DNA of 64,000 nucleotides from a virus (IMGVR_UViG_3300020193_000015), one strand, 5' to 3'. Counted from the first letter of the stretch, positions 5,597 through 41,578 are shown. Notes: generated by a model not told the origin, from the letters alone. A program made the numbers and translations.

Positions 5597-5698
5597 ATTA
5601 GTCTGTTCTGTCACCTTCCTTGGTGGGGCTGGATTATGGGAAACTGTAATCCAGCCTTTTTTCTTGACAGCTAAAGGAAAAAGTGTTATAGAATTATT

Positions 5699-6369: not shown

Positions 6370-6632
6370 ATGTAATTTATTCAAACGAACCTTTTAAAAA
6401 TCACTCTCCTTCTATCTTCCTTGCGGGGCCAACAGTTAGGCGGCAGGATTTAAAATCGTGGCGTCCTAAAGCTATTGAGTTCCTTATTAAAGAATTAGAA
6501 TTCAAGGGCGCTATTTATGTCCCTGAGTGGAATAAAAACTTACAGCCAGTTGATTATTTAACACAAGTTGAATGGGAACATTTAGGACTTGAAAACGCTA
6601 CTTATATTAGTCGTACATTTTCAGGAGTGTAG
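6366..6632 (+). CDS. hypothetical protein
   Basis: ORF track; 4-nt overlap with the upstream gene. Confidence 0.35.
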   Translation: MNVIYSNEPFKNHSPSIFLAGPTVRRQDLKSWRPKAIEFLIKELEFKGAIYVPEWNKNLQPVDYLTQVEWEHLGLENATYISRTFSGV

Positions 6633-6907
6633 CTTAACCTTGAATTGATTCTATCTATTGAGGGACTGTAAGGATTTGCTTTGCCATTGTTTGTTTCTGT
6701 TGGAATGATTAAAGGCAGGCCAGTTATAGCACAAAGCCCATTTTGTTTATCCCATAAATTGCAAAGAAAATTAGTTGAAATGTTAAATTCTATATTTTTT
6801 CTTTTTGCTCTCCTTTTTGCGATTCGATTTAGTTCCACTAAACGACCTTTTATGCTTAAATAATAGTTGTGCCTGTATTCTTGAGAATAGCTTTTATTGG
6901 CTTTCAT
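6602..6907 (-). CDS. HNH-family endonuclease (endo VII-like QNGLCAITG segment; C-terminal SIDRIN..GYT..NV)
   Basis: motifs; the same frame stays open upstream to about 7027, encoding a CSRCH..CIDC zinc-ribbon-like segment with no canonical start codon and a TAG just upstream. Confidence 0.45.
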   Translation of the reverse strand: MKANKSYSQEYRHNYYLSIKGRLVELNRIAKRRAKRKNIEFNISTNFLCNLWDKQNGLCAITGLPLIIPTETNNGKANPYSPSIDRINSRLSYTPENVRLI

Positions 6908-7053
6908 CCAATTTTGGTTAAGTATTTTAAGATGTTCTTTATGTTTTTGTCTATATTCTTTTAAATATTTGCTCCTACAATCAATACACCAAGATTTATT
7001 TGTTGTGTTTTTGTGGCATCTAGAACATAATTTTATAACCTATAAAGAGTAAC

Positions 7054-7671
7054 TTGATAGGATTTTTTATGGCTAGATTCGTTGTGGCTGATTGGCATTT
7101 AGGGGAAAATAGATTTGAATTAATGAATCGACCATTTAGTTCTCAACAACAAATGGTTGATTATTTGATTAAAAAACATAATCAAATAGTAGCCAAAGAC
7201 GATGAAGTATTTATGCTGGGGGATGTTTGCTATAAAGAAACCCCAGAATATTTAAAATATGTTGCTGACTTCAATGGAAAGAAAATTTTAGTCCGTGGTA
7301 ATCATGACCGTGGTATTACAGATGAGGAATTCAAAAACTACTTTGAAGATATTATCCCTGAAGGAAAAGGGATAGAAATCAAGATCGAAGACATACCCTG
7401 TTATTTCACTCATTATCCTACACAGGGCAGGCAAGGATGTTTTAATGTAGTTGGCCACATTCATGCTGCTTGGAAATATCAATTGAATATGTTGAACTGC
7501 GGTGTGGATGTGCATCATTTCTCGCCAGTTAATCTATCCACTATTCCAATTCACTTCAAAGCAATCCATGAGTATTATGATGAAGATATATGGGCAGCTT
7601 ATTCCCCTCTCAATTCCTGCTATGTTGGCATAAGGGGGAAGAAGGGTACTTACTTTAAGAACCCAAGTTGA
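7054..7671 (+). CDS. calcineurin-like metallophosphoesterase
   Basis: ADWHLG, LGDVCY and RGNHD motifs; alternative start at 7069. Confidence 0.65.
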   Translation: MIGFFMARFVVADWHLGENRFELMNRPFSSQQQMVDYLIKKHNQIVAKDDEVFMLGDVCYKETPEYLKYVADFNGKKILVRGNHDRGITDEEFKNYFEDIIPEGKGIEIKIEDIPCYFTHYPTQGRQGCFNVVGHIHAAWKYQLNMLNCGVDVHHFSPVNLSTIPIHFKAIHEYYDEDIWAAYSPLNSCYVGIRGKKGTYFKNPS

Positions 7672-7736
7672 TTTTTTGAAATTTTGAAATATAATACAGG
7701 AAGCACTCTTTCTAACAACTCAATGGAGTATCCTGT

Positions 7737-8156
7737 ATGCAAATGAAAGTCAAAAAGAAATTCGTCTTGACTGCGCATGTAAGGGAACGATATCTTGAAA
7801 GAATCAAAGAAATTCGCAAATATAAACCCCTCAGTGAATGCTTTGAAGAAGATTGCTATGAATGCAAAAAGCTAAAAAGAACGTTAGAATTAGAAGTTTA
7901 TAACAATAAAAGGCAGCTTGACGAAGAGATTAAGGAAAGACTGAATCGAGCAACTTCTGAAAAGAGTTATTTGAACAATTCCTCTTTTATGTACAGTATT
8001 TATAAAAAGTATGGATACGATAGAAGGTTTGAATTGCTTTTAGACAAAGATGTGGTGTTTATAGTAATTTTAGATGAAGCTAACGTAGTAGTTACTTGTA
8101 TGAATTCTAGCACTACTATATTAGCTAATTATGCTTGTAAAAATAGGGTGATTTAA
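7737..8156 (+). CDS. hypothetical protein
   Basis: ORF track. Confidence 0.4.
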   Translation: MQMKVKKKFVLTAHVRERYLERIKEIRKYKPLSECFEEDCYECKKLKRTLELEVYNNKRQLDEEIKERLNRATSEKSYLNNSSFMYSIYKKYGYDRRFELLLDKDVVFIVILDEANVVVTCMNSSTTILANYACKNRVI

Positions 8157-8401
8157 TGAAGTGCCAATGTCGATCTAAAGACTTTTTCCATGAATTGCAA
8201 TGTCAAGGTGTTCAAAAGCATTCTGGGAAACATTGGGCTTATTGTCCGGCTGGTAATTTAATTTTGTGGCTCAATAAAAGGGAAGTTAAAAAGATAACTC
8301 CAATTACAATTATGCTTGAAGACATACCACCTGGCAGTAAAAGTTATATTTCTCCAGATAAGATGTTTGAAAAGAGATGGACAGTAATAAGGAGAAAGTA
8401 A
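8156..8401 (+). CDS. hypothetical protein
   Basis: ORF track. Confidence 0.35.
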   Translation: MKCQCRSKDFFHELQCQGVQKHSGKHWAYCPAGNLILWLNKREVKKITPITIMLEDIPPGSKSYISPDKMFEKRWTVIRRK

Positions 8402-8614
8402 ATGGGCGTAAGCTATAGTTCCAACCTTTGTGTTGGTGTTAAGATGAGTAAGGTATTTGAGATAAAGAATAAAACTGTACTTAAAACTAAATACAATCCT
8501 GACACTGGTGTTCCATATGAAAGCAAACTTATAGAAAAGGAGCTTTTGTTTTTTGGAAAAGTAATAGAAGAACCTGTTAAGTATTATCCTGGCGAATGGG
8601 CACTGCAACTATAA
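8402..8614 (+). CDS. hypothetical protein
   Basis: ORF track; the stop lies inside the 46-bp element. Confidence 0.35.
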   Translation: MGVSYSSNLCVGVKMSKVFEIKNKTVLKTKYNPDTGVPYESKLIEKELLFFGKVIEEPVKYYPGEWALQL

Positions 8615-8654
8615 TAATTTATTATGCCTGTCCAGAGGCTATAGTATCTGGAAG
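8609..8654 (+). repeat. 46-bp conserved element, copy 2 of 2
   Basis: identical to 1914..1959. Confidence 0.6.
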
Positions 8655-8709
8655 AAGTATGGAATGAACCTAAATATAAGCAACAGAGATTAAATTAAGT
8701 GTAAACTTA

Positions 8710-8746
8710 GTGTCGTTTTATTCTTACGGGAATGGAAGGATGCACA
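8710..8746 (+). promoter_or_regulatory. conserved hairpin motif GTGYCGTTYTATTCTTACGGGAATRGAAGGATGCACA (copy A of 7)
   Basis: shared with 56207, 56569, 56970, 57801, 57882 and 59670; the stem has compensatory changes; ends in AAGGATGCAC. Confidence 0.55.
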
Positions 8747-8764
8747 GCAACAGAGAGCAAACTA

Positions 8765-9850
8765 ATGCGAAGTCACTTTTGGGATGTAGTGGTAAGGGGA
8801 TTTTTACCCATTCGTGATCCTGTATTAAAGGGAGATTTATTTGAAAAAATACCCCTTACAGGATCAAGGAATGAAATATTTAATTATTTAAATCAAAATA
8901 AAGTTGATTTAACAGCATTTGTAAACAATGAAGAAGATTGTGAACGGCTCTTTAGAATGTATTCCTATGCTGCTAGTGCCTTTATTCATTCCCAAAGTGA
9001 ACCGCCTACAAACGTTCTACCAAAAGAAATAGCCGTACCTTTAGTTAAGTTCTCTCAGATACTAGACAGAAAGCCAATTCTATCATATGGTAGCTATTGT
9101 TTAAATAATTGGCAAAGAATAGATGTTACCAAACCTGTAGAACTAGGTAATATTCGTTTATTGACGCATTTTTGCCCTATTCCATATAATCGGGATGAAG
9201 CTTGGTTTATTCTGGTGCATGTGGATATAGAAAATTCAGCAGCTTTGGGTATTTTTGCTTGTCATTCGATGCTTTTGCAAGACCCCTTAACACCTGAATT
9301 TGCTTTCTTTGTGCTTAATCAGATAAAAACCAGTCTGATTAACATGAATAAAGCCTTGAATAGAATGCCAGAAGAATGTAGCCCAGAGCATTATTTTTTA
9401 TTCGTTAGACCTTATATATTCAGCTTTGAAAATGTTGTTTATGAAGATTGTTTTCATGGTAAACCGCAAACTTTTAGGGGTGAAACAGGGGCACAAAGTT
9501 CTATAATACCTGCTTTTCTTGCAGCATTGGAGATAAAGCATAAAGATTCAATGTTGACTCATCATTTGCAGGAAATGCGGGATTATATGCCTAAAGACCA
9601 TCGCATTTTCCTGAATAATTTAGAAAATAGTTCTGTGCATCTAAGGGAAGTGGCTAAGAAAGACAGCAAGTTAAAGCCTTTATATAATGAATGTTTAATG
9701 CAACTTATTGATTTTAGAGAAAAACATTTTGAATATGCTATTAACTATATTGCTAATAAAGTAGAGAATCCTAAAGGTACAGGAGGAACACCTTATGTGC
9801 CTTGGCTTAAGCAGCTGAAAGAAGAGACTAAGCAGCAAATTTTGGAGTAA
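8765..9850 (+). CDS. hypothetical protein
   Basis: the ORF track begins at 8732 inside the hairpin motif; ATG 8765 is more plausible. Confidence 0.45.
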   Translation: MRSHFWDVVVRGFLPIRDPVLKGDLFEKIPLTGSRNEIFNYLNQNKVDLTAFVNNEEDCERLFRMYSYAASAFIHSQSEPPTNVLPKEIAVPLVKFSQILDRKPILSYGSYCLNNWQRIDVTKPVELGNIRLLTHFCPIPYNRDEAWFILVHVDIENSAALGIFACHSMLLQDPLTPEFAFFVLNQIKTSLINMNKALNRMPEECSPEHYFLFVRPYIFSFENVVYEDCFHGKPQTFRGETGAQSSIIPAFLAALEIKHKDSMLTHHLQEMRDYMPKDHRIFLNNLENSSVHLREVAKKDSKLKPLYNECLMQLIDFREKHFEYAINYIANKVENPKGTGGTPYVPWLKQLKEETKQQILE

Positions 9851-9852
9851 AC

Positions 9853-9987
9853 ATGAAAGATTATTTAAGGACAATCAAGCTTGGCATCGGAGAAGGTGAA
9901 CCCGGCAAGCAAGCATGTTGGATGAGTGCCCTTTCTGCGCATTTGGGCGGGGAATGGACAGATAGTTTGGAATGTGTTGATCCTTAA
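9853..9987 (+). CDS. 44-aa N-terminal module MKDYLRTIKLG..CWMSALSAHLGGEWTD..CVDP, paralogous to the N-termini at 38949 and 39938; ends in TAA
   Basis: direct sequence comparison; the gene junction GAGTAAACATGAAAGATTAT is also duplicated at 38945. Confidence 0.45.
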   Translation: MKDYLRTIKLGIGEGEPGKQACWMSALSAHLGGEWTDSLECVDP

Positions 9988-16415: not shown

Positions 16416-17588
16416 ATGCTTGTAGCAGAACGACATTATATACAAGAAACACTTGAAATTGTCCGACTATGTACATTAAGCAAAGAACTTTACAATAAAT
16501 GCAATTTCTTGATGAGGCAAGCATGGTTTATAAATGAAAAATTACCTAATATAAATTTGCTTGTTCGAGAGACAAAGCCATTAGACTGTTACAAAAACCT
16601 TCACAACACCAAAACAGCAGCACAAACAATACGTAAATGTCTTGTAGATTGGGCAAACTTCCTCAAAACCCTGAAAGCATACAAGAAAGACCCAACAAAA
16701 TTCAAAACTAGACCTAAACCGCCTTATTATAAAAATAAACTCACACAAATTATATTCTTTAATGAAACTATCAAGAAAAGACCATTGAAACAAGATGTAA
16801 TTACCCCAACGAACAATCTATTTTCAATTAAAAGTGACATTAAAGAATTTAAGCAAGTAATGATTACTCCTAAAACATTTGGTTTTATAGTAGACATTCA
16901 ATATGAAAAAGAAGTCAAGAAAGTAAAAGTAAGCAAGAATAGGTTTGCCTGTATAGATGTTGGTGTAAATAATTTAGCTACGATAACTTCAAACCAACTG
17001 GAGCATCCCATATTGGTTAATGGTCGCATACTAAAAAGCATCAATAGATTCTATAATAAAAAACCTAATAAGAATAATAGTAGGAAACGTTATTTCCGTA
17101 TTGAGAATTATTTCCATCATGCTTCTAAATTTATAATTGATTTATGTATTAAACATAAAATTGGCAAAATCATTATCGGTAAGAATGATGGTTGGAAGCA
17201 ATTTTCTAAAATACGAAAAGTACAAAACCAAAATTTTCAATATATTCCTTTTTATAAATTTTTAGATAAGATTAAGTATAAAGCAACATTAGCGGGCATT
17301 GAAGTTATATTTACTGAAGAATCATATACAAGTAAAGCAAGTTTCCTTGACCATGATTCAATACCAACTTATAAAAAAGGCAATAAACCTCCTACTTTTT
17401 CTGGTAAAAGAGATAAAGGAATGTATAGAACATTTAGACCTATTCATGCTGACGTGAATGGAAGTTTAAACATAGGATGTAAAGTATTCGGGGATAAAGT
17501 CTACAAGGCTTTCCCTGATAGGAGCATTGCCGCAATGCCAGTACGAATTAATCCATTGAAGATTTTTGCATATAACAGCAAAAATTAG
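16416..17588 (+). CDS. tnpB: TnpB-like (IS200/IS605 OrfB / Cas12-ancestor) RuvC-fold protein, 390 aa
   Basis: RuvC-I FACIDVGVNNLATIT; RuvC-III HADVNGSLNIGCKVFG; TnpB-like C-terminus; no CxxC..CxxC zinc finger; RuvC-II glutamate not evident (IIIGKND). Confidence 0.65.
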   Translation: MLVAERHYIQETLEIVRLCTLSKELYNKCNFLMRQAWFINEKLPNINLLVRETKPLDCYKNLHNTKTAAQTIRKCLVDWANFLKTLKAYKKDPTKFKTRPKPPYYKNKLTQIIFFNETIKKRPLKQDVITPTNNLFSIKSDIKEFKQVMITPKTFGFIVDIQYEKEVKKVKVSKNRFACIDVGVNNLATITSNQLEHPILVNGRILKSINRFYNKKPNKNNSRKRYFRIENYFHHASKFIIDLCIKHKIGKIIIGKNDGWKQFSKIRKVQNQNFQYIPFYKFLDKIKYKATLAGIEVIFTEESYTSKASFLDHDSIPTYKKGNKPPTFSGKRDKGMYRTFRPIHADVNGSLNIGCKVFGDKVYKAFPDRSIAAMPVRINPLKIFAYNSKN

Positions 17589-21938: not shown

Positions 21939-22343
21939 ATGAGCATTTTTGCAGATAGATTGAAAACCCTTCTTACGGTGGACAATAGCTGTTTTGCCTA
22001 TACATTAAAAGAATGGGCTTATATATTACACAGACCCGTTGAGCGAATAGAAGATTGGTTTAATGATAAAGATATACCTAGTTTTTATACTTTAAACCTT
22101 ATAACTATAGTTTTTGAGCATTCCAGCGATATGAATGTGGAAGCCTTAGCCCAATTTAAAGAATTGTTTGACATGAATCCTCTTGATATATCGCCGCATG
22201 GGGCTAGAATGTTGCCTTCCCTTGGGGAATACATCAAACGCACTATTTTTTCCGACGAATCCAGTATATTAGCAAAACTAAATAAAGATGAGCAAGCTGA
22301 ATACCTATTAAATAAATATGCAAGCCAGCAAACTACCAATTGA
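21939..22343 (+). CDS. hypothetical protein
   Basis: ORF track. Confidence 0.4.
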   Translation: MSIFADRLKTLLTVDNSCFAYTLKEWAYILHRPVERIEDWFNDKDIPSFYTLNLITIVFEHSSDMNVEALAQFKELFDMNPLDISPHGARMLPSLGEYIKRTIFSDESSILAKLNKDEQAEYLLNKYASQQTTN

Positions 22344-25167: not shown

Positions 25168-25177
25168 TTGTACCAAG
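25163..25177 (+). promoter_or_regulatory. conserved 15-mer TTTAATTGTACCAAG (copy 3)
   Basis: next ATG at 25219, which has an AGGAG RBS. Confidence 0.6.
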
Positions 25178-25218
25178 AACCGGAATCAGAGTTAAAAATA
25201 ACAAAAAAGGAGCTAATC

Positions 25219-26133
25219 ATGCGTCAAATTAGTTTTATTGTCACAAATGATGGGTCTATCTGTGCCTTTGCTAATAACAAGGCTTTCCCTCCCATCGCCA
25301 AAGATCATCCCAAGTATAACCAAGTAAAACAAGCCATCAAAGATGACAATGTTGATGAACTTAGTAAGCTTGTGGATATTGTGCAGCAGATTATCAATTT
25401 CTCTGATGGCAAGGTTGAAATCAAGGATGGGGTAGTTTATTACAACGGTCAGGCAATGCATAACGTGTTGACTAATAGGATTATTGGTCTTATGCGTGAA
25501 GATTTCCCATTTGCCCCTGTAGTTAAGTTTTTTGATAACTTGATGCAGAACCCATCTAGTTCCTCTGTAAATGAGCTATACACGTTCCTAGAGCATCGTG
25601 CGCTACCTATTACGGAAGATGGTCATTTCCTTGCCTATAAGCACGTTAGGGACGATTGGACTGATATTTGGACTGGCAAGATTGATAATAGTGTTGGCAA
25701 GGTTGTTGAAATTATCAGGAACCAAGTTGACGATGACCGCAACAAGGGCTGTTCTTATGGTTTGCATTGTGGAACCATTGAATATGTTAAAAACTATTCT
25801 GGTTCTGGTTGCAATGATGGTGGTCATTACATCATTGTTAAGGTTAATCCCAAGGATGTAGTTTCTGTGCCGTTGGAATCAAATTGCACTAAGCTACGTA
25901 CTTGCCGCTATGAAGTCCTTGGCATTTATAGTGGTGATTTGGTTGCTCCGCTTTATAATAATATGGGTGGGCCTCCTACTACCTTTGATGACCCAGAGGA
26001 TGAAGAGGAAGAGTACGAAGATTTTGATTTGGATAACGAAGAAGAGGAAGAGGAAGAGGAAGACGTTTTGGAAGCTGAGTTAGTAGACCCAACGGATTCC
26101 GATCATAGGTCTTTTAACCCAAATAACAATTAA
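25219..26133 (+). CDS. hypothetical protein with a poly-acidic C-terminal tail (DEEEEYEDFDLDNEEEEEEEED)
   Basis: ORF track (25168 alternative start); GAA/GAG triplet-repeat tract around 25990..26080. Confidence 0.45.
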   Translation: MRQISFIVTNDGSICAFANNKAFPPIAKDHPKYNQVKQAIKDDNVDELSKLVDIVQQIINFSDGKVEIKDGVVYYNGQAMHNVLTNRIIGLMREDFPFAPVVKFFDNLMQNPSSSSVNELYTFLEHRALPITEDGHFLAYKHVRDDWTDIWTGKIDNSVGKVVEIIRNQVDDDRNKGCSYGLHCGTIEYVKNYSGSGCNDGGHYIIVKVNPKDVVSVPLESNCTKLRTCRYEVLGIYSGDLVAPLYNNMGGPPTTFDDPEDEEEEYEDFDLDNEEEEEEEEDVLEAELVDPTDSDHRSFNPNNN

Positions 26134-26777: not shown

Positions 26778-27470
26778 ATGTTGAATGAAAACAAGATGGA
26801 CCTTAATTTATTTTGCAATAATCCAATATCAGCGATAAGGGCTATTTTAGCATGGCATTGGGGCAATCCTTTAATTGGCGAAGGTAATCTTTCTAAAGAC
26901 TTAGTAAGGGGATTACGTCTTACTAATAAATTTTGCAATGGTGATACCGATAATTTTACTCAATGGGATTTTTGGATTTTTCTTGATGAAAATGGAAAGA
27001 AAAGATGTAGCAAATGTCAAATAACAAAAGATACAGAAGATTTTAAAACTTCCAATAATTCCAAAGATGGTTACAAATCTGCTTGTATGAGATGTGAAAA
27101 AAATAGTGATTTGCTGAGCCAATATGGTATAACTTTGAAGCAATATGAGGCAATAGAAAAGAATCAAAATCATTGTTGTGCTATATGTGAATCAAAAGAC
27201 TCAAAAATTCCTAGAAAACATAGAAAAACTAAAATAGATGTATTTTGTGTAGACCATGACCACGATACAGGCGAAATAAGAGGTTTACTTTGTTTTAATT
27301 GTAATACTGGATTAGGGCAGTTTAAAGATTCTGCCGATGTTCTGGGAAACGCTTTGTGTTATTTGAGGAAGTTTAATTGTACCAAGAACGAGAAAAGTTC
27401 AACGAACAATCAAATAGGAAATACAAATGATTTTGGTACAGAACCCATTGAATTTGGAAAAGTCTGCTGA
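26778..27470 (+). CDS. endonuclease VII-family HNH nuclease
   Basis: CAICE..VDHDHDTGEIRGLLCFNCNTGLG. Confidence 0.75.
   Translation: MLNENKMDLNLFCNNPISAIRAILAWHWGNPLIGEGNLSKDLVRGLRLTNKFCNGDTDNFTQWDFWIFLDENGKKRCSKCQITKDTEDFKTSNNSKDGYKSACMRCEKNSDLLSQYGITLKQYEAIEKNQNHCCAICESKDSKIPRKHRKTKIDVFCVDHDHDTGEIRGLLCFNCNTGLGQFKDSADVLGNALCYLRKFNCTKNEKSSTNNQIGNTNDFGTEPIEFGKVC
27372..27386 (+). promoter_or_regulatory. conserved 15-mer TTTAATTGTACCAAG (copy 4)
   Basis: lies within the 3' end of the 26778 CDS (FNCTK); next ATG at 27427. Confidence 0.6.
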
Positions 27471-29466
27471 TGTTAAGCCATCTACTTTTAGGATTAAAGC
27501 GTCTCAAAAAGCTTTTGCGATCTTGTCGTCTGGTTTATATTCAGATAAGGTGTCATCGACCATCCGTGAATTGTCTACCAATGCCGCTGATGCCCATATC
27601 GCTGCTGGCAACAAGGAATCTTTTACCGTTCATCTGCCCAATACCCTTGAACCATTTTTCTCCGTAAAGGACAATGGCACTGGACTTTCCGAACATCACC
27701 TTAATACCCTTTATACAACCTATTTTGAATCAGATAAAACTCATTCAAATGACTTTACTGGTTGCTTGGGATTGGGCAGTAAGAGTCCATTTAGCTATAC
27801 CGATCAATTCACCGTTGAAAGCCGATTCAATGGCAACAAGTATACCTATAGTTGCTTCATTGATCAGGATGGATTGCCTTCTATCGCCAAGATGGGTGAA
27901 GAAGTTACTGAAGAATCCAACGGTCTAGAAGTTAAGTTTGCTGTTAAAAGTTCTGATTTCTGGGAATTTCAGAATAAGGCATCAAATATTCTATCTTGGT
28001 TTAATCCTCAGCCTAATGTTGTTGGCGTTGCTGGGTTTGAACTTACGCAACGAGAATACATTAGGAAAACTGATAAGTATGCTCTCCGCAAGGAAAAGCA
28101 TTATGGTGATGCGAGCCGATTGATCATGGGTAATGTTGCTTATAAGCTGTCTACCTACAGTCTTGGCAACAAGGTTAGTTTGGATGAACTTGACCGGCAG
28201 ATTCTAGATTGGGGCTGTGAAATCTTTGTCCCAATTGGCACTGTTGAAGTAACTGCAAACCGTGAAGATATTACTTATACTGAAAATAGTGCTAAGGTCA
28301 TTAAGGAATGTCTTGCTGAAGCTGTCAAGGATGTTAGGGGAGAAATTGATAACATGATAGCTTCCGCTCCTACAATTTGGGAAGCTAGGCGTGTTCTCCA
28401 TGATTCTCACCATTCCATCATTGGCAAGATTAAGAATTTAACTTCTGCTACTTGGAATGGTCAGGAAATTCATAGTTATGTAAGTTCTGCCAAGTGGAAT
28501 GAAAAGAACCCTGACAAGGAAATTAATATTCAGTTTTTGCGACGTAAGAAGGAACGTTTCGCAAAGAGCAATGGGCATAGCCACATTCACGCTGATAACA
28601 AGCCCATTTATGTGAATGACTTGGGGCATGGTGGTTACACAAGGGTTTTGCATGATTTAAATAAGAAACGCACAGATGAAGCTTACTTGCTGCAAAACAA
28701 TAACGTAAGTTTCTTGGAAGAAGCTGGACTAAAAGAAATTGTAATTCGTGCTAGTTCTTTACCTAAGCCTGAAAGCAAGCGTTCTTATGTTCCACGTCGC
28801 AAGGGAGTAAGGGCACAGCTTAATCGTTGGGTTGAATCTCATTCCTATAAAAAAGAAGCTTGTTCATATTGGCAACCAGCTGACGTTGATTTGGAACAAG
28901 GTGGCATTTATGTAGAAATGTCTTACTATAAATATACGTTGTTTGGTAATGAAGGTAATAGCCCAGACGGTTTGGAGTCTACCATCAGCGCTTTGTCGGC
29001 TTTCCATGAATCTGAGGATGGAAAATTGGAAGTTTTTGGAATTCGTTCGGCTGATAAGAAGATTCTGGAAAAGATGGATAACTGGATTAGCCTTGACGAT
29101 TATATCAAGGAAGTTGTTGAAGCTAATGAATATCTTGATGCCACTATCAAGATGAATAATGAATGGACTCATTATCGTGACAATCTTGCCGAAGCTTTCT
29201 TTAATGATGATTTGAGTGAAAAAACCTTATTTGGCCGTTATGTGGAATATTGCAAAAAGGCTTACAAGGCTCATTCCAGTGAAAGTCGGGCATATATTAG
29301 ACTGTGCGGTTTGGTTAATAAGAACATTGGAACTGGAACTAAGTTAAAGGAAATGCGGGATGAATTGCAGGCCAAGTATCCTTTGATTAGTTTTCTTAGT
29401 TCTTACGATACTCCTTACAACAGTAAAACTTTTAAGGCAGCACTTTTGAAATATGTGAAGGAGTAA
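27427..29466 (+). CDS. GHKL-family ATPase domain protein (Hsp90/MutL/MORC-like ATP-binding fold)
   Basis: IRELSTNAADAH (N box-like), VKDNGTGL (G1-like), GCLGLGSKSPFSY (G2-like). Confidence 0.5.
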   Translation: MILVQNPLNLEKSADVKPSTFRIKASQKAFAILSSGLYSDKVSSTIRELSTNAADAHIAAGNKESFTVHLPNTLEPFFSVKDNGTGLSEHHLNTLYTTYFESDKTHSNDFTGCLGLGSKSPFSYTDQFTVESRFNGNKYTYSCFIDQDGLPSIAKMGEEVTEESNGLEVKFAVKSSDFWEFQNKASNILSWFNPQPNVVGVAGFELTQREYIRKTDKYALRKEKHYGDASRLIMGNVAYKLSTYSLGNKVSLDELDRQILDWGCEIFVPIGTVEVTANREDITYTENSAKVIKECLAEAVKDVRGEIDNMIASAPTIWEARRVLHDSHHSIIGKIKNLTSATWNGQEIHSYVSSAKWNEKNPDKEINIQFLRRKKERFAKSNGHSHIHADNKPIYVNDLGHGGYTRVLHDLNKKRTDEAYLLQNNNVSFLEEAGLKEIVIRASSLPKPESKRSYVPRRKGVRAQLNRWVESHSYKKEACSYWQPADVDLEQGGIYVEMSYYKYTLFGNEGNSPDGLESTISALSAFHESEDGKLEVFGIRSADKKILEKMDNWISLDDYIKEVVEANEYLDATIKMNNEWTHYRDNLAEAFFNDDLSEKTLFGRYVEYCKKAYKAHSSESRAYIRLCGLVNKNIGTGTKLKEMRDELQAKYPLISFLSSYDTPYNSKTFKAALLKYVKE

Positions 29467-30847: not shown

Positions 30848-33800
30848 ATGTCGCAATTTAAGACAGTTGAGAATTTTAAGGATATTTTAATGTTAAAAGA
30901 AAAAACTACTTTGCGATCCTATCAGCTGCTTCTATTAGATAATCATGATTTAGTAGAAAAGACGATAGATGTTTATACAAAAGGAGCTTCTGCTTGGTTG
31001 GACTTTTGGCTTACTGTTTTGGGCGGTATAGAATTTGAGATGATTCCATTATCTCCTCTTAGCAGTTATTGTATTACTAAAAAATTAAAGAGGAAATCCC
31101 AAGAAGATAAAGAAATATTTATTCCTATTAGCGAAGAAGCTTTATTGTTTGGCTGTTGGTTTTCTTTAGAAACGAATAGCAATTCGCCATTCATTATTTC
31201 TGTTCAAGATGTTTGGAACAAGTTCAAATCTTATCTGCCGAATAATGTGAAAATAAGCTACAATTGGGAAAGAACTATCAAAGCACAAATTAATTCCTTT
31301 GTGTCTGAGAATACTTGTTGGGTAGATAGAAGAAAAGCATTTCAAGACCTATCATTTAAAATTAATGTTGCTGATCTTGTTTGTAAAAAAGATTTTTGGC
31401 TTAATAAAGATGTGGATAGCAAATTGTATATGAGAAGTGCCTTGGGGCAATGGTGGAATGATGGAACAAAATCAGATTGGGTTAATCTTAAAATTAAATG
31501 TGAACAGTCTATAAAATTTATCGAACAAGAATCAGATATCAGAAATGCAAAAACAAAAATTCTACAATCTCTTGGATTGCCAGATATAGCAGAAGCTAAA
31601 GAAATTGGCAAAGCTTATGGCAAAAAAGGAAAGCCTTCCAGAGTGTTTATTAAATTGGAAAAATTAACAGAAGATACTACCAAAGACCAATTGGTTAAGG
31701 AATTTCAAGAAGAAATTGTAAACGCAGAAGAACATGTTGCTTTTAAGCGTTGTCCCTGGCATGCGAAAATTAGAGAAAACATTGAAAAAGCAATAGGTGT
31801 AAGTTATTTTAATGAAAAAGGTAATAGTAGTCAAAATAATTTTGGAGAAATGGGCAATCTTGCTCTTGAAAAAATTAAAAGTTGGAAATCTAATTTTTTT
31901 AATGTCTTAGGAGAAAGATATCATAACTGTAAATCTGATTTCCATGATTCAGAGGTAAAAGAATGGTTTGAAGAATACAAAAAAACAAACAAACAACTTA
32001 GAAATAGCAGCCTTTCAGGACTTGAAAAAGTATTTGATTTACTAGATAACAAGTCTTTTGAAGATGCTATTAAAGAAGCCCAAAAATCCTACAACATTCT
32101 TGGAAGAAGATTTGGAGACGCTAACTTTTTCAACTTTTTAGGCAATAAAATTCAGTCCAGAAAGGACAAAGATTGGTTGAAATTAATACGAGAATATGAT
32201 AATTGGGATAATGTAAATTACAAATTTATAAATCATAAAAGTCCAAGACTTAAGCATTTTGGGGATGATCACTTAGCCACTCCTAGATTTGGGGAGTCAA
32301 GACCAACAGGCAATATCAAAAGCACAACTGGAAATAGTCACTCAATTACATTGAATGTTTTCGATGGCAAATCATTCAAACTGACTAAAATTAATTCTGC
32401 TTGCAAAAGATTGTCTAATGAAATTAAAGATAATCAATCAATTAGACAGACTAAGTTATCTGGAAAAATCTTTGAAAACTATCGAATTCTTCCTAAGAGT
32501 TTAGTTAAAAAGGGTGGACTTAAACTTTGTAAACAAAATGATAAATGGTATGCCCATCTAACAGTCAATTTGCCAGTATTTGAAAAAGCTTCATGGCAAA
32601 AATTGATGAAAACCGGCACCATAATAATGAGTATAGACCCTGGTATTAGAAGTTCTATATCATATACTATATTTGAAATATTTGAATGTGATCGAGATAC
32701 AGATTATTTTATTGAAAATGGCATTACTCATGTGAAAATACATTCATGGGAAGATCATAGTGGTACTAAGTTTAAAGTGCCTCATAATAATTTGTGGGTT
32801 AAATTGTTGGAATGGGGACATATTCGTGATCTACAACCTATTGGCGAAAATGGTTATCGTCAGTGCAGATTAGATGGTGGAACAAACACCAATTTAGACT
32901 CAGAAGAAATAGAATTTTGGAAATATCTTTTAATAACTGGTGTTGAGCAAAAAGACATGCCTGATCCTTTGCCAAAAAGGTCTGAATATTCTAGAATTAT
33001 TGCAAATTTAATTAACAAGTGGTATACAAACAAATCAAAAGAAATTACAGATAAGGTTAAACAACTAAATATTAATGATCCTGTAGAGTTTTCAAAAACT
33101 TTACAACATGTAAGAAAAGAAAGCGATTTATCATCAGAATTATTGATAAAGGCGTCCCAAATATTATTTGTAAATAATTCAGATAAAATTGGGAGAGGCG
33201 GGTTATCCTATGCTAGAATTAAGATGCTCCAAACACTTTCTTCTGCTTGTAATAAATTCTTAAAAGTTAAAGAAAATAATGCAGAAATTATTGAATTTCA
33301 GAATTTTCTTAGAAAGAAAATTAATGCCATAAGAACGGAACGAGTAAGAATTACTGTAAACAAAGTTTTGCATGAAGCTGTCAATAACAAAGTAAATCTA
33401 ATTCTATATGAAAATACCCAACTAAAATCTTCTTCCAGTTCCCCCAGAGGTCTTAATAGAAGTATAACATCCTGGTGCCCGTCAAAAGTAATCGAAGAAT
33501 TGAAAAAACAAATAGATTTGTTGCCAATTTCTATAATGGGAGTAAACTCTGCTTATACGTCTCATAACTGTTTTGTAACTTGCAAGAAAAAATGTCGTTA
33601 TGATAAAGTTCATTTAGATGATCTTAATATTGAGCCTTGGAAAGAAAGAATAACCGATATTTTTACAAAAAAACAATTAAGCTTAACTGATTGTTTGTTG
33701 AAAAAAGGTTGGGAAAATTTCCTGAAAGAAAATGACTTGATGAGCTACAAACAAATACCTGAATTTGTTAAAAACAAAAAAGCTTTTTGTTTAGTTCCCT

Positions 33801-33910
33801 CCAGGACAGGAAAATTGTTTGTTACAGAAATTGGAGAATTGAATGCTGATATCGCCGCTGCTGCTACAATAGGAATGAAAGGTCTTGCAATAATCCTATC
33901 CAAAGCTTAA
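30848..33910 (+). CDS. cas12: type V CRISPR effector, Cas12-like (1020 aa; size and repeat suggest the Cas12i-like compact class)
   Basis: split RuvC motifs in TnpB/Cas12 order: RuvC-I MSIDPGIRSS (D about 32636), RuvC-II LILYENTQL (E about 33410), Cys-containing stretch SHNCFVTCKKKC, RuvC-III ELNADIAAAATIGMKGL (D about 33849); a 26-repeat array follows directly. Confidence 0.75.
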   Translation: MSQFKTVENFKDILMLKEKTTLRSYQLLLLDNHDLVEKTIDVYTKGASAWLDFWLTVLGGIEFEMIPLSPLSSYCITKKLKRKSQEDKEIFIPISEEALLFGCWFSLETNSNSPFIISVQDVWNKFKSYLPNNVKISYNWERTIKAQINSFVSENTCWVDRRKAFQDLSFKINVADLVCKKDFWLNKDVDSKLYMRSALGQWWNDGTKSDWVNLKIKCEQSIKFIEQESDIRNAKTKILQSLGLPDIAEAKEIGKAYGKKGKPSRVFIKLEKLTEDTTKDQLVKEFQEEIVNAEEHVAFKRCPWHAKIRENIEKAIGVSYFNEKGNSSQNNFGEMGNLALEKIKSWKSNFFNVLGERYHNCKSDFHDSEVKEWFEEYKKTNKQLRNSSLSGLEKVFDLLDNKSFEDAIKEAQKSYNILGRRFGDANFFNFLGNKIQSRKDKDWLKLIREYDNWDNVNYKFINHKSPRLKHFGDDHLATPRFGESRPTGNIKSTTGNSHSITLNVFDGKSFKLTKINSACKRLSNEIKDNQSIRQTKLSGKIFENYRILPKSLVKKGGLKLCKQNDKWYAHLTVNLPVFEKASWQKLMKTGTIIMSIDPGIRSSISYTIFEIFECDRDTDYFIENGITHVKIHSWEDHSGTKFKVPHNNLWVKLLEWGHIRDLQPIGENGYRQCRLDGGTNTNLDSEEIEFWKYLLITGVEQKDMPDPLPKRSEYSRIIANLINKWYTNKSKEITDKVKQLNINDPVEFSKTLQHVRKESDLSSELLIKASQILFVNNSDKIGRGGLSYARIKMLQTLSSACNKFLKVKENNAEIIEFQNFLRKKINAIRTERVRITVNKVLHEAVNNKVNLILYENTQLKSSSSSPRGLNRSITSWCPSKVIEELKKQIDLLPISIMGVNSAYTSHNCFVTCKKKCRYDKVHLDDLNIEPWKERITDIFTKKQLSLTDCLLKKGWENFLKENDLMSYKQIPEFVKNKKAFCLVPSRTGKLFVTEIGELNADIAAAATIGMKGLAIILSKA

Positions 33911-33959
33911 AATGGCTCTGTTCGTTGATCTTTGACATCTTATTTTTAAGTTTATTTTA

Positions 33960-33996
33960 AACAGAAAGCAAACTGTTATCAGTTTTTCTTTCTGTT
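33960..33996 (+). terminator. hairpin AACAGAAAGCAAACTG..CAGTTTTTCTTTCTGTT downstream of cas12
   Basis: about 16-bp imperfect stem, T-rich. Confidence 0.55.
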
Positions 33997-33997
33997 C

Positions 33998-34035
33998 AGT
34001 CTCTCGCCCTTATTTAAAAATAAGGGCGAGAGACT
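33998..34035 (+). terminator. perfect 15-bp stem AGTCTCTCGCCCTTA/TAAGGGCGAGAGACT with loop TTTAAAAA
   Basis: read directly. Confidence 0.6.
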
Positions 34036-34259
34036 ATGTGGTGAAAAACGTTGGAAAAGAAAATTTTTCTTAAGTCCTGATGAATTAAGCTTTTGCGATA
34101 AAGTTATCCTGTGCTGCCTATCGCTCGTTTTAAGTCTTTATTTGAAAAAGGTTTATGGCATCAAACCAATAAAATTCGGATATGCAGTTGTTCTAAAGTA
34201 ATTGCCTCTCGCATACTTGTTTGTAAGTTGTTTTATTAAAAGGCTTTATGCAAATGAGC

Positions 34260-36080
34260 GTTGCAATAGATTAAAACAATGTGCTGTTATTGGCACTTCG
34301 GCGTCATCGTCGGCATGGCCGCCCTGGTCCTGGTTGCAATAGATTAAAACAATGTGCTGTTATTGGCACACCAATGGCCAGTTTCAGAAAAGCACTTTTT
34401 CAATGTTGCAATAGATTAAAACAATGTGCTGTTATTGGCACAAATAAAACCAGCCAGTAACCGCTATATCCGCAAAAGTTGCAATAGATTAAAACAATGT
34501 GCTGTTATTGGCACTATTTGATTGTACATTGCATTACAATCGCCGTTTTTGTTGCAATAGATTAAAACAATGTGCTGTTATTGGCACCCAAAGGCCAGTC
34601 TCCGCCTTTGGCGCTCAAGAGCGTTGCAATAGATTAAAACAATGTGCTGTTATTGGCACCGATACAATGAAAGTAATCACGTGCACGATGGCAAGGTTGC
34701 AATAGATTAAAACAATGTGCTGTTATTGGCACGTCAAATATGGAGTAGGATGAAGGGCGAATTTTGGAGTTGCAATAGATTAAAACAATGTGCTGTTATT
34801 GGCACTGGAGGCTAAGGACTAACAAGAAGAAACTAGGAATGGTTGCAATAGATTAAAACAATGTGCTGTTATTGGCACGGAGTCCAGATACCATAGTTAA
34901 TTCGTTGCAATAGATTAAAACAATGTGCTGTTATTGGCACACTAATCAGCCAATCTTCTTAGGTGTTGATCTTTCGTTGCAATAGATTAAAACAATGTGC
35001 TGTTATTGGCACCGAACCGCCCTTGCCGCCGCCGTACACCTTAATGGTGTTGCAATAGATTAAAACAATGTGCTGTTATTGGCACTATCCGCAAAAAAAG
35101 AATGTGTCAATGCAAGGGTATTGTTGCAATAGATTAAAACAATGTGCTGTTATTGGCACCCAGCTTGGCAATCTGTCCTTCAATGTGCGTTCTTTGTTGC
35201 AATAGATTAAAACAATGTGCTGTTATTGGCACTATAGTGTATGCACCGACTAATATATAATAGTAGCGTTGCAATAGATTAAAACAATGTGCTGTTATTG
35301 GCACTTTTTGGTCCTCGTCGTGGCCGTACACGTGATCGAGGTTGCAATAGATTAAAACAATGTGCTGTTATTGGCACTCCAGTTATTGCTTGTTACTGAG
35401 AGAAGGGCTGGGCAGCGTTGCAATAGATTAAAACAATGTGCTGTTATTGGCACTATAGCAATCGATTATCTCCGCATCGTCCAGTAGATGTTGCAATAGA
35501 TTAAAACAATGTGCTGTTATTGGCACCTGCGCAGCGTAGAAGGTTGTTTCGTCGATGACCTGGTTGCAATAGATTAAAACAATGTGCTGTTATTGGCACA
35601 AACGTGACAAAGAGGTTGCAATAGATTAAAACAATGTGCTGTTATTGGCACATGAATTCGCCAGTGGCGACATGTCGGTCCGTGTCTGGTTGCAATAGAT
35701 TAAAACAATGTGCTGTTATTGGCACTTGATGCTCTGCCCCAGACTTTCGTGGAAATCCGTGTTGCAATAGATTAAAACAATGTGCTGTTATTGGCACGGC
35801 ATTTGCTTAGCCACCTCCGCACTCTTACACTTCTGTTGCAATAGATTAAAACAATGTGCTGTTATTGGCACAATGTTCCAGACTTGCTACTACCTAATAT
35901 GTTTCCGTTGCAATAGATTAAAACAATGTGCTGTTATTGGCACGTGCGAAGGTTGCCGGACTGCTTATGTTGCAATAGATTAAAACAATGTGCTGTTATT
36001 GGCACTGGAACGCACTTTTTCTTTTTTGCGATGCAGCAAGGAAGTTGCAATAGATTAAAACAATGTGCTGTTATTAGCAC
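34260..36080 (+). CRISPR. CRISPR array of 26 repeats and 25 spacers; repeat GTTGCAATAGATTAAAACAATGTGCTGTTATTGGCAC (37 bp); terminal repeat is degenerate (..TTATTAGCAC)
   Basis: repeats enumerated at 34260, 34333, 34405 and so on to 36044; spacer lengths are mostly 35-37 nt, with outliers of 15, 25, 25, 38 and 39 nt; the repeat 3' end forms GTGC-TGTTATTG-GCAC; the degenerate repeat at the 3' end implies a leader at the 5' (cas12-proximal) side. Confidence 0.95.
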
Positions 36081-37450: not shown

Positions 37451-37638
37451 TAACAAGTGATGATCCTCTTACTGCAAAATTGATAAAGCTTTTGAACCGG
37501 GCACATGATATAATATGGCTCAATGCTTTAGAACCTATTTATAAAGAAGAGGTTTTGTCACAAGCAGAAATTGAAGCTTTTCTGATGGAAGTTGAGGAAG
37601 TAATATATAAGCCAAACCCAAAAGCCCCTGTAGTTTAA
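37429..37638 (+). CDS. hypothetical protein
   Basis: ORF track. Confidence 0.3.
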   Translation: MVREKLMITSDDPLTAKLIKLLNRAHDIIWLNALEPIYKEEVLSQAEIEAFLMEVEEVIYKPNPKAPVV

Positions 37639-37697
37639 TTGTGCAAAACGTGCTACTTTAGATAGCTAAGATGTGGGTTCGAATCCTGCCAGGGGCG
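37624..37697 (+). tRNA. tRNA with anticodon UUA (candidate ochre/amber suppressor tRNA)
   Basis: manual cloverleaf: acceptor GCCCCTG/CAGGGGC, D-stem GTTT/AAAC, anticodon stem TGCTA/TAGCT with loop CTTTAGA, variable loop AAGAT, T-arm GTGGG-TTCGAAT-CCTGC, discriminator G; unusual G at position 37. Confidence 0.55.
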
Positions 37698-37726: not shown

Positions 37727-38300
37727 GTGATGAAGAAAACAAAACCAACACAACTTAATGAACAAATATTACAAAAAATAATTCCAAATTGTATTTCTTA
37801 CAGCGAAGTGTTTAGGCAATTAGGTATGGTTCCTGCTGGTGCCAATTATAGAACCTTGCATAAGTATGTTAAATTATGGAATATTGATGTATCTCACATT
37901 GAGGCACGTACTTGGCATAAACATATAAGTAATGGGAGGGGCAGACCTTTAGAAGAAATTTTGGTTAAAGGCAGATTCGAGACGGGACACATTCTAAAAA
38001 AAAGACTTATAGCAGCAGGAATCAAAAAACATGCTTGCGAAGGATGTGGTTTAACTGAATGGCGTGGCAAGTCAATTCCTTTAGAAGTTCACCATAAAGA
38101 CGGGGATAGGAATAACAACTTGCTTGTAAGTCTTGTGATGAAAAAAACCGAAAAACAAAAATTTCTTGGCCATCCTGTGAAGAACTTCAATCAATGATAA
38201 AATCTTCTTCATTTTTAGCTGTTGGAAGGCAATTAGGAGTTTCAGATAGGGCAGTTCATAAGCGGTTAAAGAATCATTGTGGAATCAAAAATGAGTAAAA
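37727..38300 (+). CDS. HNH homing-type endonuclease with an apparent -1 frameshift near 38125 (1-nt indel)
   Basis: CEGCG..LEVHHKDGDRNNNLL in frame 1 (stop at 38197), then CKSCDEKNRK..SSFLAVGRQLGVSDRAVHKRLKNHCGIKNE in the -1 frame to 38300; together these rebuild a complete HNH plus C-terminal HTH tail. Confidence 0.6.
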
Positions 38301-38948: not shown

Positions 38949-39641
38949 ATGAAAGATTATCTAAGAACAATTAACTTGGGGTAGGGAGTCGGTGAATCTG
39001 GCAAGCAAGCATGTTGGATGAGCGCTCTTTCTGCTCATTTGGGTGGGGAATGGACCGATACATTAGATTGCGTTGATCCTATCATTAATAGCCTTTGCAT
39101 AATTATTAATGATCTTTATTATATGGACAATAAGGGCAGAACCAATGACATTATGAAATTTGGTTTGTTTGCTCCATTGGGAACTAAAGGCACTTGGAAA
39201 GATACTGAGAAAAGACTATTTAAACTTGCGGATATTGCTATAAGAAAATGGGCAGCAACCGTGAGTTTTCATACAGGATTTATACAAGATGAAAAATTCC
39301 TAAGAAATTTGGATGAAATTGTAGATTTGCCTAGTCTTCGTAAAGCTAGAAATGATATTGAAATTGCAGCTTGTTATTTAATGAGTGAATTGGACATAAT
39401 AATTTATCATATAAAAGGCATTTTGATAATCCACGAAACTTGCAAGAGAGAAATGATAGCTAATTTATATAAGTTTACTGGAATTTTGATAGATCATATG
39501 GGTAGAAACGTTCTCGTAAAAGATCATTTATATTCTGCACTAAGAGAACTAATTGAAATGGGTCCACATGCACCAGAAGAACCTGAATATCCTGCTTGTG
39601 GTATTCCAAAGTTTCAAGAACTAGTAGGTATTAAAACATAA
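38949..39641 (+). CDS. paralog B1 (N-terminal MKDYLRTINLG.. module); in-frame TAG at codon 12 (38982..38984)
   Basis: ATG 1 nt after the upstream stop; the frame is continuous with ORF 39018..39641 except for the single TAG; the aligned position is Ile or Phe in the paralogs. Confidence 0.5.
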
Positions 39642-39653
39642 ACTAAAAGAATT

Positions 39654-39682
39654 AGTGGATTAAAACAATGTGCTGCTGGCAC
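39654..39682 (+). repeat. orphan degenerate CRISPR repeat GATTAAAACAATGTGCTG-CTGGCAC (3-nt deletion in the hairpin loop)
   Basis: 18 of 18 nt plus TGGCAC match the array repeat; lies between the 38949 gene stop and the 39694 gene start. Confidence 0.55.
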
Positions 39683-39693
39683 ATAGGTATTAA

Positions 39694-39936
39694 ATGTCAA
39701 AGTTAACTGTTAGGACTATCTTTAATGGTGCAATGAATGCCAAGTATGAAGTTAGTATTCCTCTTAACAAGAAAGAAACAGAGGAACTTAAAAGTGCTTT
39801 GGAAGTGGTAAGAAAGTATGAGAAACAAGCTTTAGACGCCACAAAGGTATCTAGAAAGACAGAAGCAGTTGTAATTGATTATCTGGTTAAATCAAATAGT
39901 GTGCTTATCTCTGTTGAAGCTGGAGGTTTTGGTTAA
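39694..39936 (+). CDS. hypothetical protein
   Basis: ORF track. Confidence 0.35.
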   Translation: MSKLTVRTIFNGAMNAKYEVSIPLNKKETEELKSALEVVRKYEKQALDATKVSRKTEAVVIDYLVKSNSVLISVEAGGFG

Positions 39937-40489: not shown

Positions 40490-40499
40490 TTGTACCAAG
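40485..40499 (+). promoter_or_regulatory. conserved 15-mer TTTAATTGTACCAAG (copy 5)
   Basis: contains the TAA stop of the 39938 gene; ATG at 40503 and 40508. Confidence 0.6.
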
Positions 40500-40507
40500 C
40501 AAATGCC

Positions 40508-41578
40508 ATGCAACCATATTTTCAATTTTTCAGGGAAGGGGAAAATCCACCCTCTCCTAACTGTCGTAATTGGTATCTTGACCCATCTAACCCAGAGTCC
40601 CCATATTACGGGTTCGTGGGTAATGAGAATGCTATTAAGAGGCTTGTCCGTATTGACTTTAATGCTTTGGGTAAGTTCAATCATGCCACAGAGGGATTAA
40701 ATGTGGCGGTTATTGGTCCTGCTGGTACTGGCAAGACTAGCCTCGTAAAGCGTCACAATAGGGCTAGAATGCTTCCGTTTGTGGAAATTAGCCCAAAGTC
40801 CGTCAAGAACACTCAGGATTTATTTAAAGAAATCTCAGGTGTTGCATTTAGGTCTGGCGTGACCCTTGAGAAGCAGAATAATGGGTTTTACCTTCCGCCA
40901 ATGGACATTTTCATTGACGAAGTTCATGCCCTTCATAACAACATGGTCCAAGGATTGCTTAAAGCTACTGAACCCAGCGATAGCATCCTTGTTACCTCTG
41001 AGGGCATGACGGTTAATTGTAAAAATATCCACTGGATTATTGCTACAACTGACCGTGGTAAGCTGTTTGATGCCTTTGATACCCGTTTCATAAAGATTCA
41101 ACTGCATCTTTATGACAAGGAAACGATGGCTCAGATTGTAAATGCCCATTATCCTAACTGGTCTATGGACGTTTGTAGGCTGGTTGCCCATTATAGCTCC
41201 AGGGTTCCTAGAGAAGCTATTGCATTCGCTAAGGAAATGACTTTGGAATATAACATGAATCCTGGCAATTGGGAATCAGTAGCAAAGCAAATAGCCTGTG
41301 ATAATGAAATTGACCCTTGGGGAATGACTTATCAGCGGCTTAAAATCCTTAAAGCATTAGGCCAACACCCGGTTTCTGCTGCTAGACTTCCTGGCGTGGC
41401 TGAATGTAAAATCGAAGAATTGGATAAGTTTGTTCTGCCCTGGTTGCTTGAATCGACTCCAGATCAGGCGGCAATGGTTTCTGTTAGCAGCAAAGGTTAT
41501 TGTATAACTGAGGCTGGAGTTGAGCAATTGGAAGTCAGGGGTATTGAGTATAACAAAGACGTACTTGAGGCTGCATAA
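40508..41578 (+). CDS. AAA+ ATPase, RuvB/RFC-like
   Basis: Walker A GPAGTGKTS; Walker B DIFIDEVHAL; sensor ATTDRG; the ORF track starts at TTG 40490. Confidence 0.55.
   Translation: MQPYFQFFREGENPPSPNCRNWYLDPSNPESPYYGFVGNENAIKRLVRIDFNALGKFNHATEGLNVAVIGPAGTGKTSLVKRHNRARMLPFVEISPKSVKNTQDLFKEISGVAFRSGVTLEKQNNGFYLPPMDIFIDEVHALHNNMVQGLLKATEPSDSILVTSEGMTVNCKNIHWIIATTDRGKLFDAFDTRFIKIQLHLYDKETMAQIVNAHYPNWSMDVCRLVAHYSSRVPREAIAFAKEMTLEYNMNPGNWESVAKQIACDNEIDPWGMTYQRLKILKALGQHPVSAARLPGVAECKIEELDKFVLPWLLESTPDQAAMVSVSSKGYCITEAGVEQLEVRGIEYNKDVLEAA

Follow-up and report, generated by a model that had tools for sequence, protein, structure and literature searches.

What kind of system is a CRISPR-Cas locus (short palindromic repeats, clustered and regularly interspaced, with their associated genes) that consists of one effector gene and a long array, and against what would a phage use it? 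The question is raised by the viral DNA IMGVR_UViG_3300020193_000015, a stretch of 64,000 nucleotides (nts), hereafter the window, in which a gene for a Cas12-like protein is followed by a 26-repeat array. The answer favored here, with a probability of roughly 0.8, is that the locus is a type V-I-like CRISPR-Cas module, limited to interference, that resides in a large freshwater phage with T4-like and huge phages as its relatives. The initial annotation of this DNA had seen no cas1, cas2 or cas4 around the locus, and a search of the 117 open reading frames (ORFs) of at least 75 amino acids (aa) in the whole 64 kilobases (kb) likewise finds no match to Cas1, Cas2 or Cas4 (PADLOC, E<=1e-3).

The effector and its family

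The effector gene stands where it had been placed, on the + strand and with 1020 aa:

30848..33910, + strand: gene of the cas12i-like effector; ORF of 1020 aa, or 1006 aa from the likely start at 30890; D597, E855 and D1001 as RuvC residues

The true start is probably the ATG at 30890, because an AAGGA ribosome-binding site lies 7 nts upstream of it, public gene calls of the effector are 1006 aa long, homologues start aligning at residue 15-19, and residues 1-17 are disordered in the AlphaFold2 model, with a predicted local distance difference test score (pLDDT) below 50. The guanine-cytosine (GC) content of the gene, 0.30-0.32, fits the ~0.35 of the window, in keeping with the earlier remark that the locus has the composition of its surroundings. 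Copies of the effector occur on contigs from JGI, ENA and Logan, all of them 100% identical to the window.

To judge from its sequence, the protein belongs to the Cas12i (type V-I) family as a strongly diverged member, and its RuvC triad is intact. Most database searches with the effector return little or nothing: Pfam gives no match, NCBIfam a single sub-threshold match, to Cas12b, and phmmer against PDB sequences recovers no Cas12i. A word-index search of 5.8 billion clusters finds the effector itself only, tblastn against INPHARED with the effector and three family members gives zero matches, and so does a protein-pattern scan of IMG/VR. Among the PADLOC models, Cas12i is the best defense-family match (4.3e-24 vs. 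9.3e-17 for Cas12b). An exhaustive HMMER search of 1.84 billion cluster representatives retrieved only 39 relatives, the closest being P0002 at 40% identity and the next at 30%. The family so retrieved would be the Cas12i family, with the effector as one of its outliers, because 32/33 full-length relatives match the Cas12i hidden Markov model (HMM), the best at 1.3e-178, while with Cas12b none of them scores better than about 1e-25. A profile of these 33 sequences matches Cas12i2 at 5e-87 (residues 4-1029) and Cas12i1 at 3e-64, both over their full length, compared with 2.5e-72 for ChCas12b and 1e-29 for classical Cas12b; profile comparison makes the effector homologous to Cas12i along its full length. 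A profile of the six nearest sequences finds Cas12i2 at full length (6.7e-24), scores ChCas12b higher (1.9e-31) and misses Cas12i1. The resemblance to type V-I, first suggested in the initial annotation, is thereby borne out by the PADLOC match, by the HMM matches of the relatives and by the full-length profile matches to Cas12i2 and Cas12i1.

The split RuvC triad that had been read from the ORF also holds. The motifs IDPG, LYENT and NADIAAA contain D597, E855 and D1001, which occupy near-invariant RuvC columns in the alignment of 33 homologues and align with the RuvC motifs of Cas12i2. Within the family, the effector belongs to a small sub-clade, P0001-P0006. Two of its members, P0004 and P0006, come from contigs that look like phage; those of the others are too short for a judgment. 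A more distant member, P0017, was considered as Cas12i2 itself and rejected, although the lengths agree. Its contig, L008, encodes an AcrVA2-like protein (Pfam PF26125, 2049-3047) a few kb upstream of the effector gene.

The AlphaFold2 model of the full-length effector is confident, with a pLDDT of 87 and a predicted template modeling score (pTM) of 0.81. A structure search, which the initial annotation had named as a check, was run with Foldseek and ranks Cas12i2 (6LTU, 5.8e-31, template modeling (TM) score 0.66/0.65) and Cas12i1 (7D2L, TM 0.67/0.64) first. Next comes ChCas12b, with TM 0.70 by query length and 0.52 by target length, and then AacCas12b at about 0.49. The model is about equally close to ChCas12b, which depends on a tracrRNA (trans-activating CRISPR RNA), and to Cas12i1 and Cas12i2. 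By its predicted fold, the effector thus falls into the group of Cas12b and Cas12i, and the structure by itself does not settle which of the two it is.

Leader, array and guide RNA

Because the fold leaves this choice undecided and ChCas12b, a protein of 1496 aa, is tracrRNA-dependent (PMC12204704), the guide-RNA question was examined separately. The elements that bear on it follow the effector gene on the same strand:

33960..33996, + strand: stem-loop 1, 3′ of the effector gene; may be a terminator or a site of processing; has no U-tract
33998..34035, + strand: stem-loop 2, with a 17-bp stem; contains the first CTCTCGC motif (34001-34007)
34036..34259, + strand: array leader, with GCCTCTCGCA at 34204-34213
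34260..36080, + strand: CRISPR array of 26 repeats of 37 nts and 25 spacers; terminal repeat (36044-36080) mutated

The gap of 350 nts between gene and array contains the two strong stem-loops (region z = -5.2). They had been described as two strong hairpin terminators; the hairpins are indeed strong, but a terminator scan calls neither of them and a U-tract is absent from both. In the leader, a CCnCTCG motif lies about 55 nts upstream of the first repeat in 5/5 related loci (the window plus L004, L005, L006 and L009), whose proteins are 25-40% identical. This motif may serve as part of a promoter or be bound by a protein. The sequence CTCTCGC has two + strand copies in the 64-kb window, at 34001-34007 and 34206-34212, both between the effector gene and the array.

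The array of 26 units of a 37-bp repeat is confirmed at 34260-36080. The repeat, GTTGCAATAGATTAAAACAATGTGCTGTTATTGGCAC, is identical in 25 copies and carries one G>A change in the last. The spacers are 35-39 nts long, mostly 35-37, except for S09, S19 and S24 (25, 15 and 25 nts, respectively), and have a mean GC content of 0.47 (range 0.31-0.69) vs. the ~0.35 of the window. Because the conserved leader, the degenerate repeat at the array end distal to the effector gene and the protospacer-adjacent motif (PAM) of spacer S02 agree, the array would be read on the + strand from the effector-gene end. Spacers S02 (34370-34404) and S05 (34588-34622) agree at 13/15 initial nts, and S11 and S15 have GCCGTACAC in common; such related spacers may be variants that cover one target region. 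A weaker repeat-like stretch, TTGCCTATACATTAAAAGAATGGGCTTATAT, occurs at 21994-22024 (+) inside ORF 21939-22343; it agrees at 25/31 positions, has lost the hairpin part and is probably due to chance.

The final 16 nts of the repeat form a 5-6-bp stem-loop adjoining the spacer. A hairpin in this place had been pointed out before, but the pairing then given for it, GUGC-N8-GCAC, is to be amended to a stem of 5-6 bp, GUGCU(G)...(U)GGCAC. Same-strand arrays lie downstream of three relatives of the effector as well:

P0003: repeat GTCGTCACACCGAAACAACTAGTGCCGGACTTGGCAC
P0012: repeat GTTGCAATGCCTAATCAAATTGTGTCGATATGGACAC
P0004: three-unit mini-array, in which only ...ATAGAATGTGCCGTATATGGGCAC is conserved

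Across four loci, six variants of the repeat keep a 5-bp 3′ stem; one CG>UA change is compensatory, and U-G wobbles occur that pair only in the + sense. Given the small sample, this conservation is supportive of the stem, not statistical. An Rfam scan of the locus finds no family, and neither the repeat nor a degenerate repeat pattern has a match in IMG/VR. The repeat ends may resemble those of the Cas12i1 repeat.

Would such a guide need a tracrRNA? Cas12i1 and Cas12i2 process their precursor CRISPR RNA (pre-crRNA) themselves, do not need a tracrRNA and recognize a 5′-TTN PAM (PMC8190297, PMC7567891). ChCas12b, from Candidatus Hydrogenedentes (9KLN), instead uses a 75-nt tracrRNA that pairs with a 16-nt segment of the repeat (PMC12204704). 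In search of an anti-repeat, the repeat was scanned with RNAduplex along the window, on both strands. Between 29 and 38.5 kb the scan finds no outlier, the best site being at -22.5 kcal/mol against a mean of -11.7 (standard deviation 3.4), and three related loci are likewise without an anti-repeat outlier. The sole outlier of the window, at -37 kcal/mol, lies at 39.66 kb and is a same-sense partial copy of the repeat:

39658..39682, + strand: orphan copy of the handle part of the repeat, GATTAAAACAATGTGCTG---CTGGCAC; corresponds to repeat positions 10-37 except for one mismatch and a loop shortened by 3 nts

The earlier statement that the flanks hold no sequence complementary to the repeat is therefore correct within about 3.5 kb; beyond that, this partial copy would be an anti-repeat if it were transcribed from the minus strand. 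The copy lies within the 52 nts that separate ORF 39018-39641 from ORF 39694-39933, 10 nts before the ATG of the latter. It preserves the stem despite the loop deletion and covers the part of the repeat expected to remain as the handle of the mature CRISPR RNA (crRNA), which in Cas12i2 is 23 nts long (PMC7567891). The sequence that follows it, in the position of a guide, has no second match in the window. The copy could be a relic, a one-unit guide, a site on phage mRNA for Cas12i binding or processing, or a minus-strand anti-repeat; a handle copy in the + sense is favored, if not decided. Virus-borne mini-arrays and solitary repeat units have reportedly been seen before (Medvedeva 2019; Camara-Wilpert 2023). 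Like them, the unit at 39658-39682 belongs to a viral genome and is not part of an array; unlike them, it shares that genome with a cognate effector and a full array, comprises the handle part only, and is placed directly upstream of a gene start.

The minus-strand possibility matters, as it would turn the locus into a tracrRNA-dependent, Cas12b-like system related to ChCas12b, with the anti-repeat supplied from 39658-39682. The preference of the six-sequence profile for ChCas12b, its best PDB match and a tracrRNA user, is what such a system would produce, and so is the pairing of the minus strand with the repeat; a weak promoter-like site and a hairpin with a T-run also lie near the element on that strand. 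These promoter-like and terminator-like matches are, however, at chance level. Between the element and the array lie 3.6 kb with six + strand ORFs. The element also overlaps a + strand gene at that gene's 5′ end and resembles exactly the crRNA-handle part, with a stem whose U-G wobble pairs only in the + sense. Moreover, the homologous loci are without an anti-repeat, Cas12i HMM scores exceed Cas12b HMM scores, and neither the Cas1, Cas2 and Cas4 usual in type V-B loci, sought in the whole window, nor a tracrRNA gene with an anti-repeat adjacent to the locus was found. The effector here, at ~1006 aa, also differs from the 1496-aa ChCas12b in length, and its repeat is self-folding with no anti-repeat nearby. 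A tracrRNA-dependent system is, on balance, very unlikely, and the type V-I-like module, presumably guided by crRNA alone, is preferred.

The target of spacer S02

Only one spacer has so far led to a target:

34370..34404, + strand: spacer S02, identical at 35/35 to bacterial contig Ga0194132_10011303 (L013, 1883..1849), with a 5′-TTC flank

One metagenome scan, with the first 24 nts of S02 as the query, returned this single contig (11.5 kb), which comes from the same JGI lake sample as the phage contig L002. The match extends to the whole spacer, and L013 is without a copy of the repeat. On the spacer-identical strand the 5′ flank of the protospacer reads ...TTTTTTC, that is TTC, in agreement with the Cas12i PAM 5′-TTN at n=1; the opposite orientation would give AAA. 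L013 has a GC content of 55% and encodes BrxA (5171-5761), BrxB and BrxC (6346-9945) of a bacteriophage exclusion (BREX) system, followed by the start of a further gene, probably pglX, that is conserved in this position in relatives. Its BrxC is 83-90% identical to proteins of Planctomycetota metagenome-assembled genomes; BREX is widely transferred. Upstream of brxA by 3.3 kb, the protospacer falls on the start of a hypothetical ORF of 81 aa, in a stretch of 44-49% GC that is not conserved beside BREX in related genomes. An adjoining 186-aa gene has 66%-identical homologues in gene clusters where an integrase of phage type and a resolvase also occur. Pfam, PHROG and PADLOC give no match for the genes around the protospacer. 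The difference in GC, 35% in a phage against 55% in a host, is no objection to the pairing, because T4 and Escherichia coli differ similarly. Together, these observations support the view that S02 is a guide with a perfect match and a compatible PAM, aimed at DNA of a bacterium or a mobile element in the phage's own community, in a variable region beside a defense locus. That it is aimed at a "defense island" as such is a hypothesis only.

The 10 nts 3′ of the protospacer (TTTGCAGTAG, L013 1839-1848, minus) agree at 8/10 with the start of the repeat (GTTGCAATAG, window 34405-34414), so that the alignment of L013 with the array runs to 44/46. This likeness could be chance (about 4e-4) or a hint of spacer entry without Cas1-Cas2. 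No other spacer matches L013, 80 BREX loci or integrase-bearing elements with a homologue of the protospacer-adjacent gene, and none has a target in the window itself.

How might such a module work? The array would be transcribed on the + strand from the leader adjoining the effector gene. The 3′ end of each repeat would fold into its stem-loop, which the Cas12i-like protein would bind as a 5′ handle, and by analogy with Cas12i1 and Cas12i2 the effector itself may trim the pre-crRNA without a tracrRNA. The resulting complex would recognize double-stranded DNA with 5′-TTN beside the protospacer and cut it with its single RuvC site (D597/E855/D1001). With no Cas1, Cas2 or Cas4, the phage would be unable to add spacers by itself. 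At least one guide appears to be aimed at the DNA of a community bacterium, in a variable, lower-GC segment 3.3 kb from BREX; with its target so placed, the module would most likely be directed, to the phage's benefit, at rival elements and/or at DNA resident in the host, be it an island, a mobile element or the chromosome. In this scheme we infer that the array is transcribed and the pre-crRNA self-processed, that DNA is cleaved, and what biological purpose this serves.

Several findings weigh against this reading. The effector is only 14-16% identical to Cas12i1 and Cas12i2 in structural alignments, and a single-sequence search misses both. The Cas12i2 processing residues H485/H486 align with T513/K514, at a position that varies across the family, so that self-processing cannot be read from the sequence and would be, as said, by analogy. 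The PAM comes from one protospacer in a T-rich context. Of six individually searched spacers, one has a target; five were searched in the viral collection only, with zero matches in IMG/VR, and S02 in viral and metagenome collections. The whole array finds no match in INPHARED or in plasmid collections. Finally, the locus occurs in four copies with 100% identity among them, and these give no evidence of array turnover.

The same facts could be read as those of an inert relic, or of a protein that only binds or regulates without cutting DNA, the S02 match being old history. Adaptation genes are not found in the window, three spacers are truncated to 15-25 nts, the four copies show no variation and 5/6 individually searched spacers are without a match, all of which a decaying locus might display. 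It would scarcely be expected, however, to retain an intact RuvC triad, 25/26 identical repeats, a conserved leader and a protein that models confidently over its full length (pLDDT 87), or to possess a perfect same-sample target (35/35) with a correct-looking PAM. Inertness is accordingly judged still less probable than tracrRNA dependence, and an interference-competent type V-I-like module remains the preferred account.

The direction of such interference has a counterpart in a phage of Vibrio. Phage ICP1 reportedly carries a type I-F CRISPR-Cas system with Cas1 and Cas2-3, acquires spacers and targets a host island, the phage-inducible chromosomal island-like element (PLE), in the study of Seed et al. 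(2013), which PMC7162821 cites. In both cases a CRISPR system carried by a phage has a spacer that matches host-resident DNA associated with anti-phage defense. The ICP1 system, however, is class 1 and has adaptation, whereas the present one is class 2 and without adaptation genes, and its link to defense is proximity to BREX (3.3 kb). A more ambitious proposal, which we consider possible but doubtful, is that the Cas12i attacks a host-resident, defense-linked element, the BREX-flanking variable segment, and that in addition the repeat copy at 39658-39682 loads Cas12i onto a phage transcript or gene at its 5′ end, so as to regulate it or else to cut relatives that lack the insertion. If true, this would be a single-effector counterpart of ICP1 vs. 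PLE.

Phage setting and known systems

The setting of the locus is that of a phage, as the initial annotation had proposed, with characteristic genes around the effector and array:

25168-26133: rIIB (E 3.1e-71)
26778-27470: endonuclease VII
27427-29466: rIIA (E 2.9e-117)
37727-38197: HNH homing endonuclease
40490-41578: clamp-loader-like protein

NUDIX, thioredoxin and Thg1-like genes occur elsewhere in the window. Conceivably, the window could instead be a segment of a bacterial chromosome or plasmid with a type V-I locus of the usual cellular sort: the examined window ORFs yielded no virion structural gene, and the effector and array have no match in INPHARED or IMG/VR. Against this stand the rIIA, rIIB, endonuclease VII and HNH genes themselves, a gene order in which nearly all genes share the + strand and most ORFs have no family match, a top rIIA match (37% identity) in the 595-kb uncultured phage LR756511.1, and the similarly phage-like contigs of the relatives P0004 and P0006. 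A cellular origin is the least probable of the accounts considered, and residence in a large phage is retained.

The kind of system is already known, because type V-I, and phage-encoded Cas12i without Cas1, Cas2 or Cas4 in huge phages, have been published (Al-Shayeb et al., 2020; PMC7162821). With type V-I as represented by Cas12i1 and Cas12i2 (Yan et al., 2019; 6W5C, 7D2L, 6LTU), the locus shares a single effector of ~1000-1100 aa with a split RuvC, a full-length profile and fold match, a composition of effector plus array only, a repeat ending in a spacer-adjacent stem-loop, a TTN-type 5′ flank on its sole target and the lack of an evident tracrRNA. It departs from them in its low structural-alignment identity, in the Cas12i2 processing histidines, which are not conserved here, and in being phage-encoded. 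It resembles the CRISPR-Cas systems of huge phages (phage Cas12i and CasPhi/Cas12j) in being a type V, class 2 system that a large phage carries without Cas1, Cas2 or Cas4, in its intact catalytic residues and in having a spacer against the DNA of other community members. Unlike these, its effector is without a detectable relative in the deposited phage genomes searched, its array is long, at 26 repeats, and its sole target is a bacterial contig beside BREX, not a phage.

What is new, then, is a very divergent effector in a small sub-clade near the Cas12i/Cas12b boundary, a leader motif conserved across related loci, a handle-only repeat copy and a same-sample spacer target beside BREX. The locus adds to the Cas12i family a compact (~1006 aa) effector whose nearest relative is 40% identical among ~15 billion proteins, and, with its repeat defined, its PAM likely to be TTN and a natural target at hand, it offers enzyme discovery useful raw material. 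Because the effector lies near the Cas12i/Cas12b boundary, its need for a tracrRNA, or lack of it, bears on how crRNA-only guidance arose. The same-sample match beside BREX makes the targets of phage CRISPR testable for a class 2 system.

Other genes of the window touch on nucleases and translation. A TnpB/Cas12f-like gene of 390 aa lies at 16416-17588 (+), with a PHROG transposase match, Pfam OrfB_IS605 and TNB domains and a PADLOC match to Cas12f (2.6e-10). The Cas12i-bearing contigs L006 and L011 also have TnpB genes, which are 34% identical to each other and have no BLAST match to the one in the window. PADLOC gives one Csx1-like match (1.3e-7) among the window ORFs, its other matches being to IetA, TRIP13 and type II restriction enzyme models. 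Lastly, 1.5 kb downstream of the array, a tRNA at 37624-37697 (+) scores 57.4 bits in Rfam against a gathering threshold of 29; its anticodon, UUA, would read the stop codon UAA, and it may be a suppressor tRNA.

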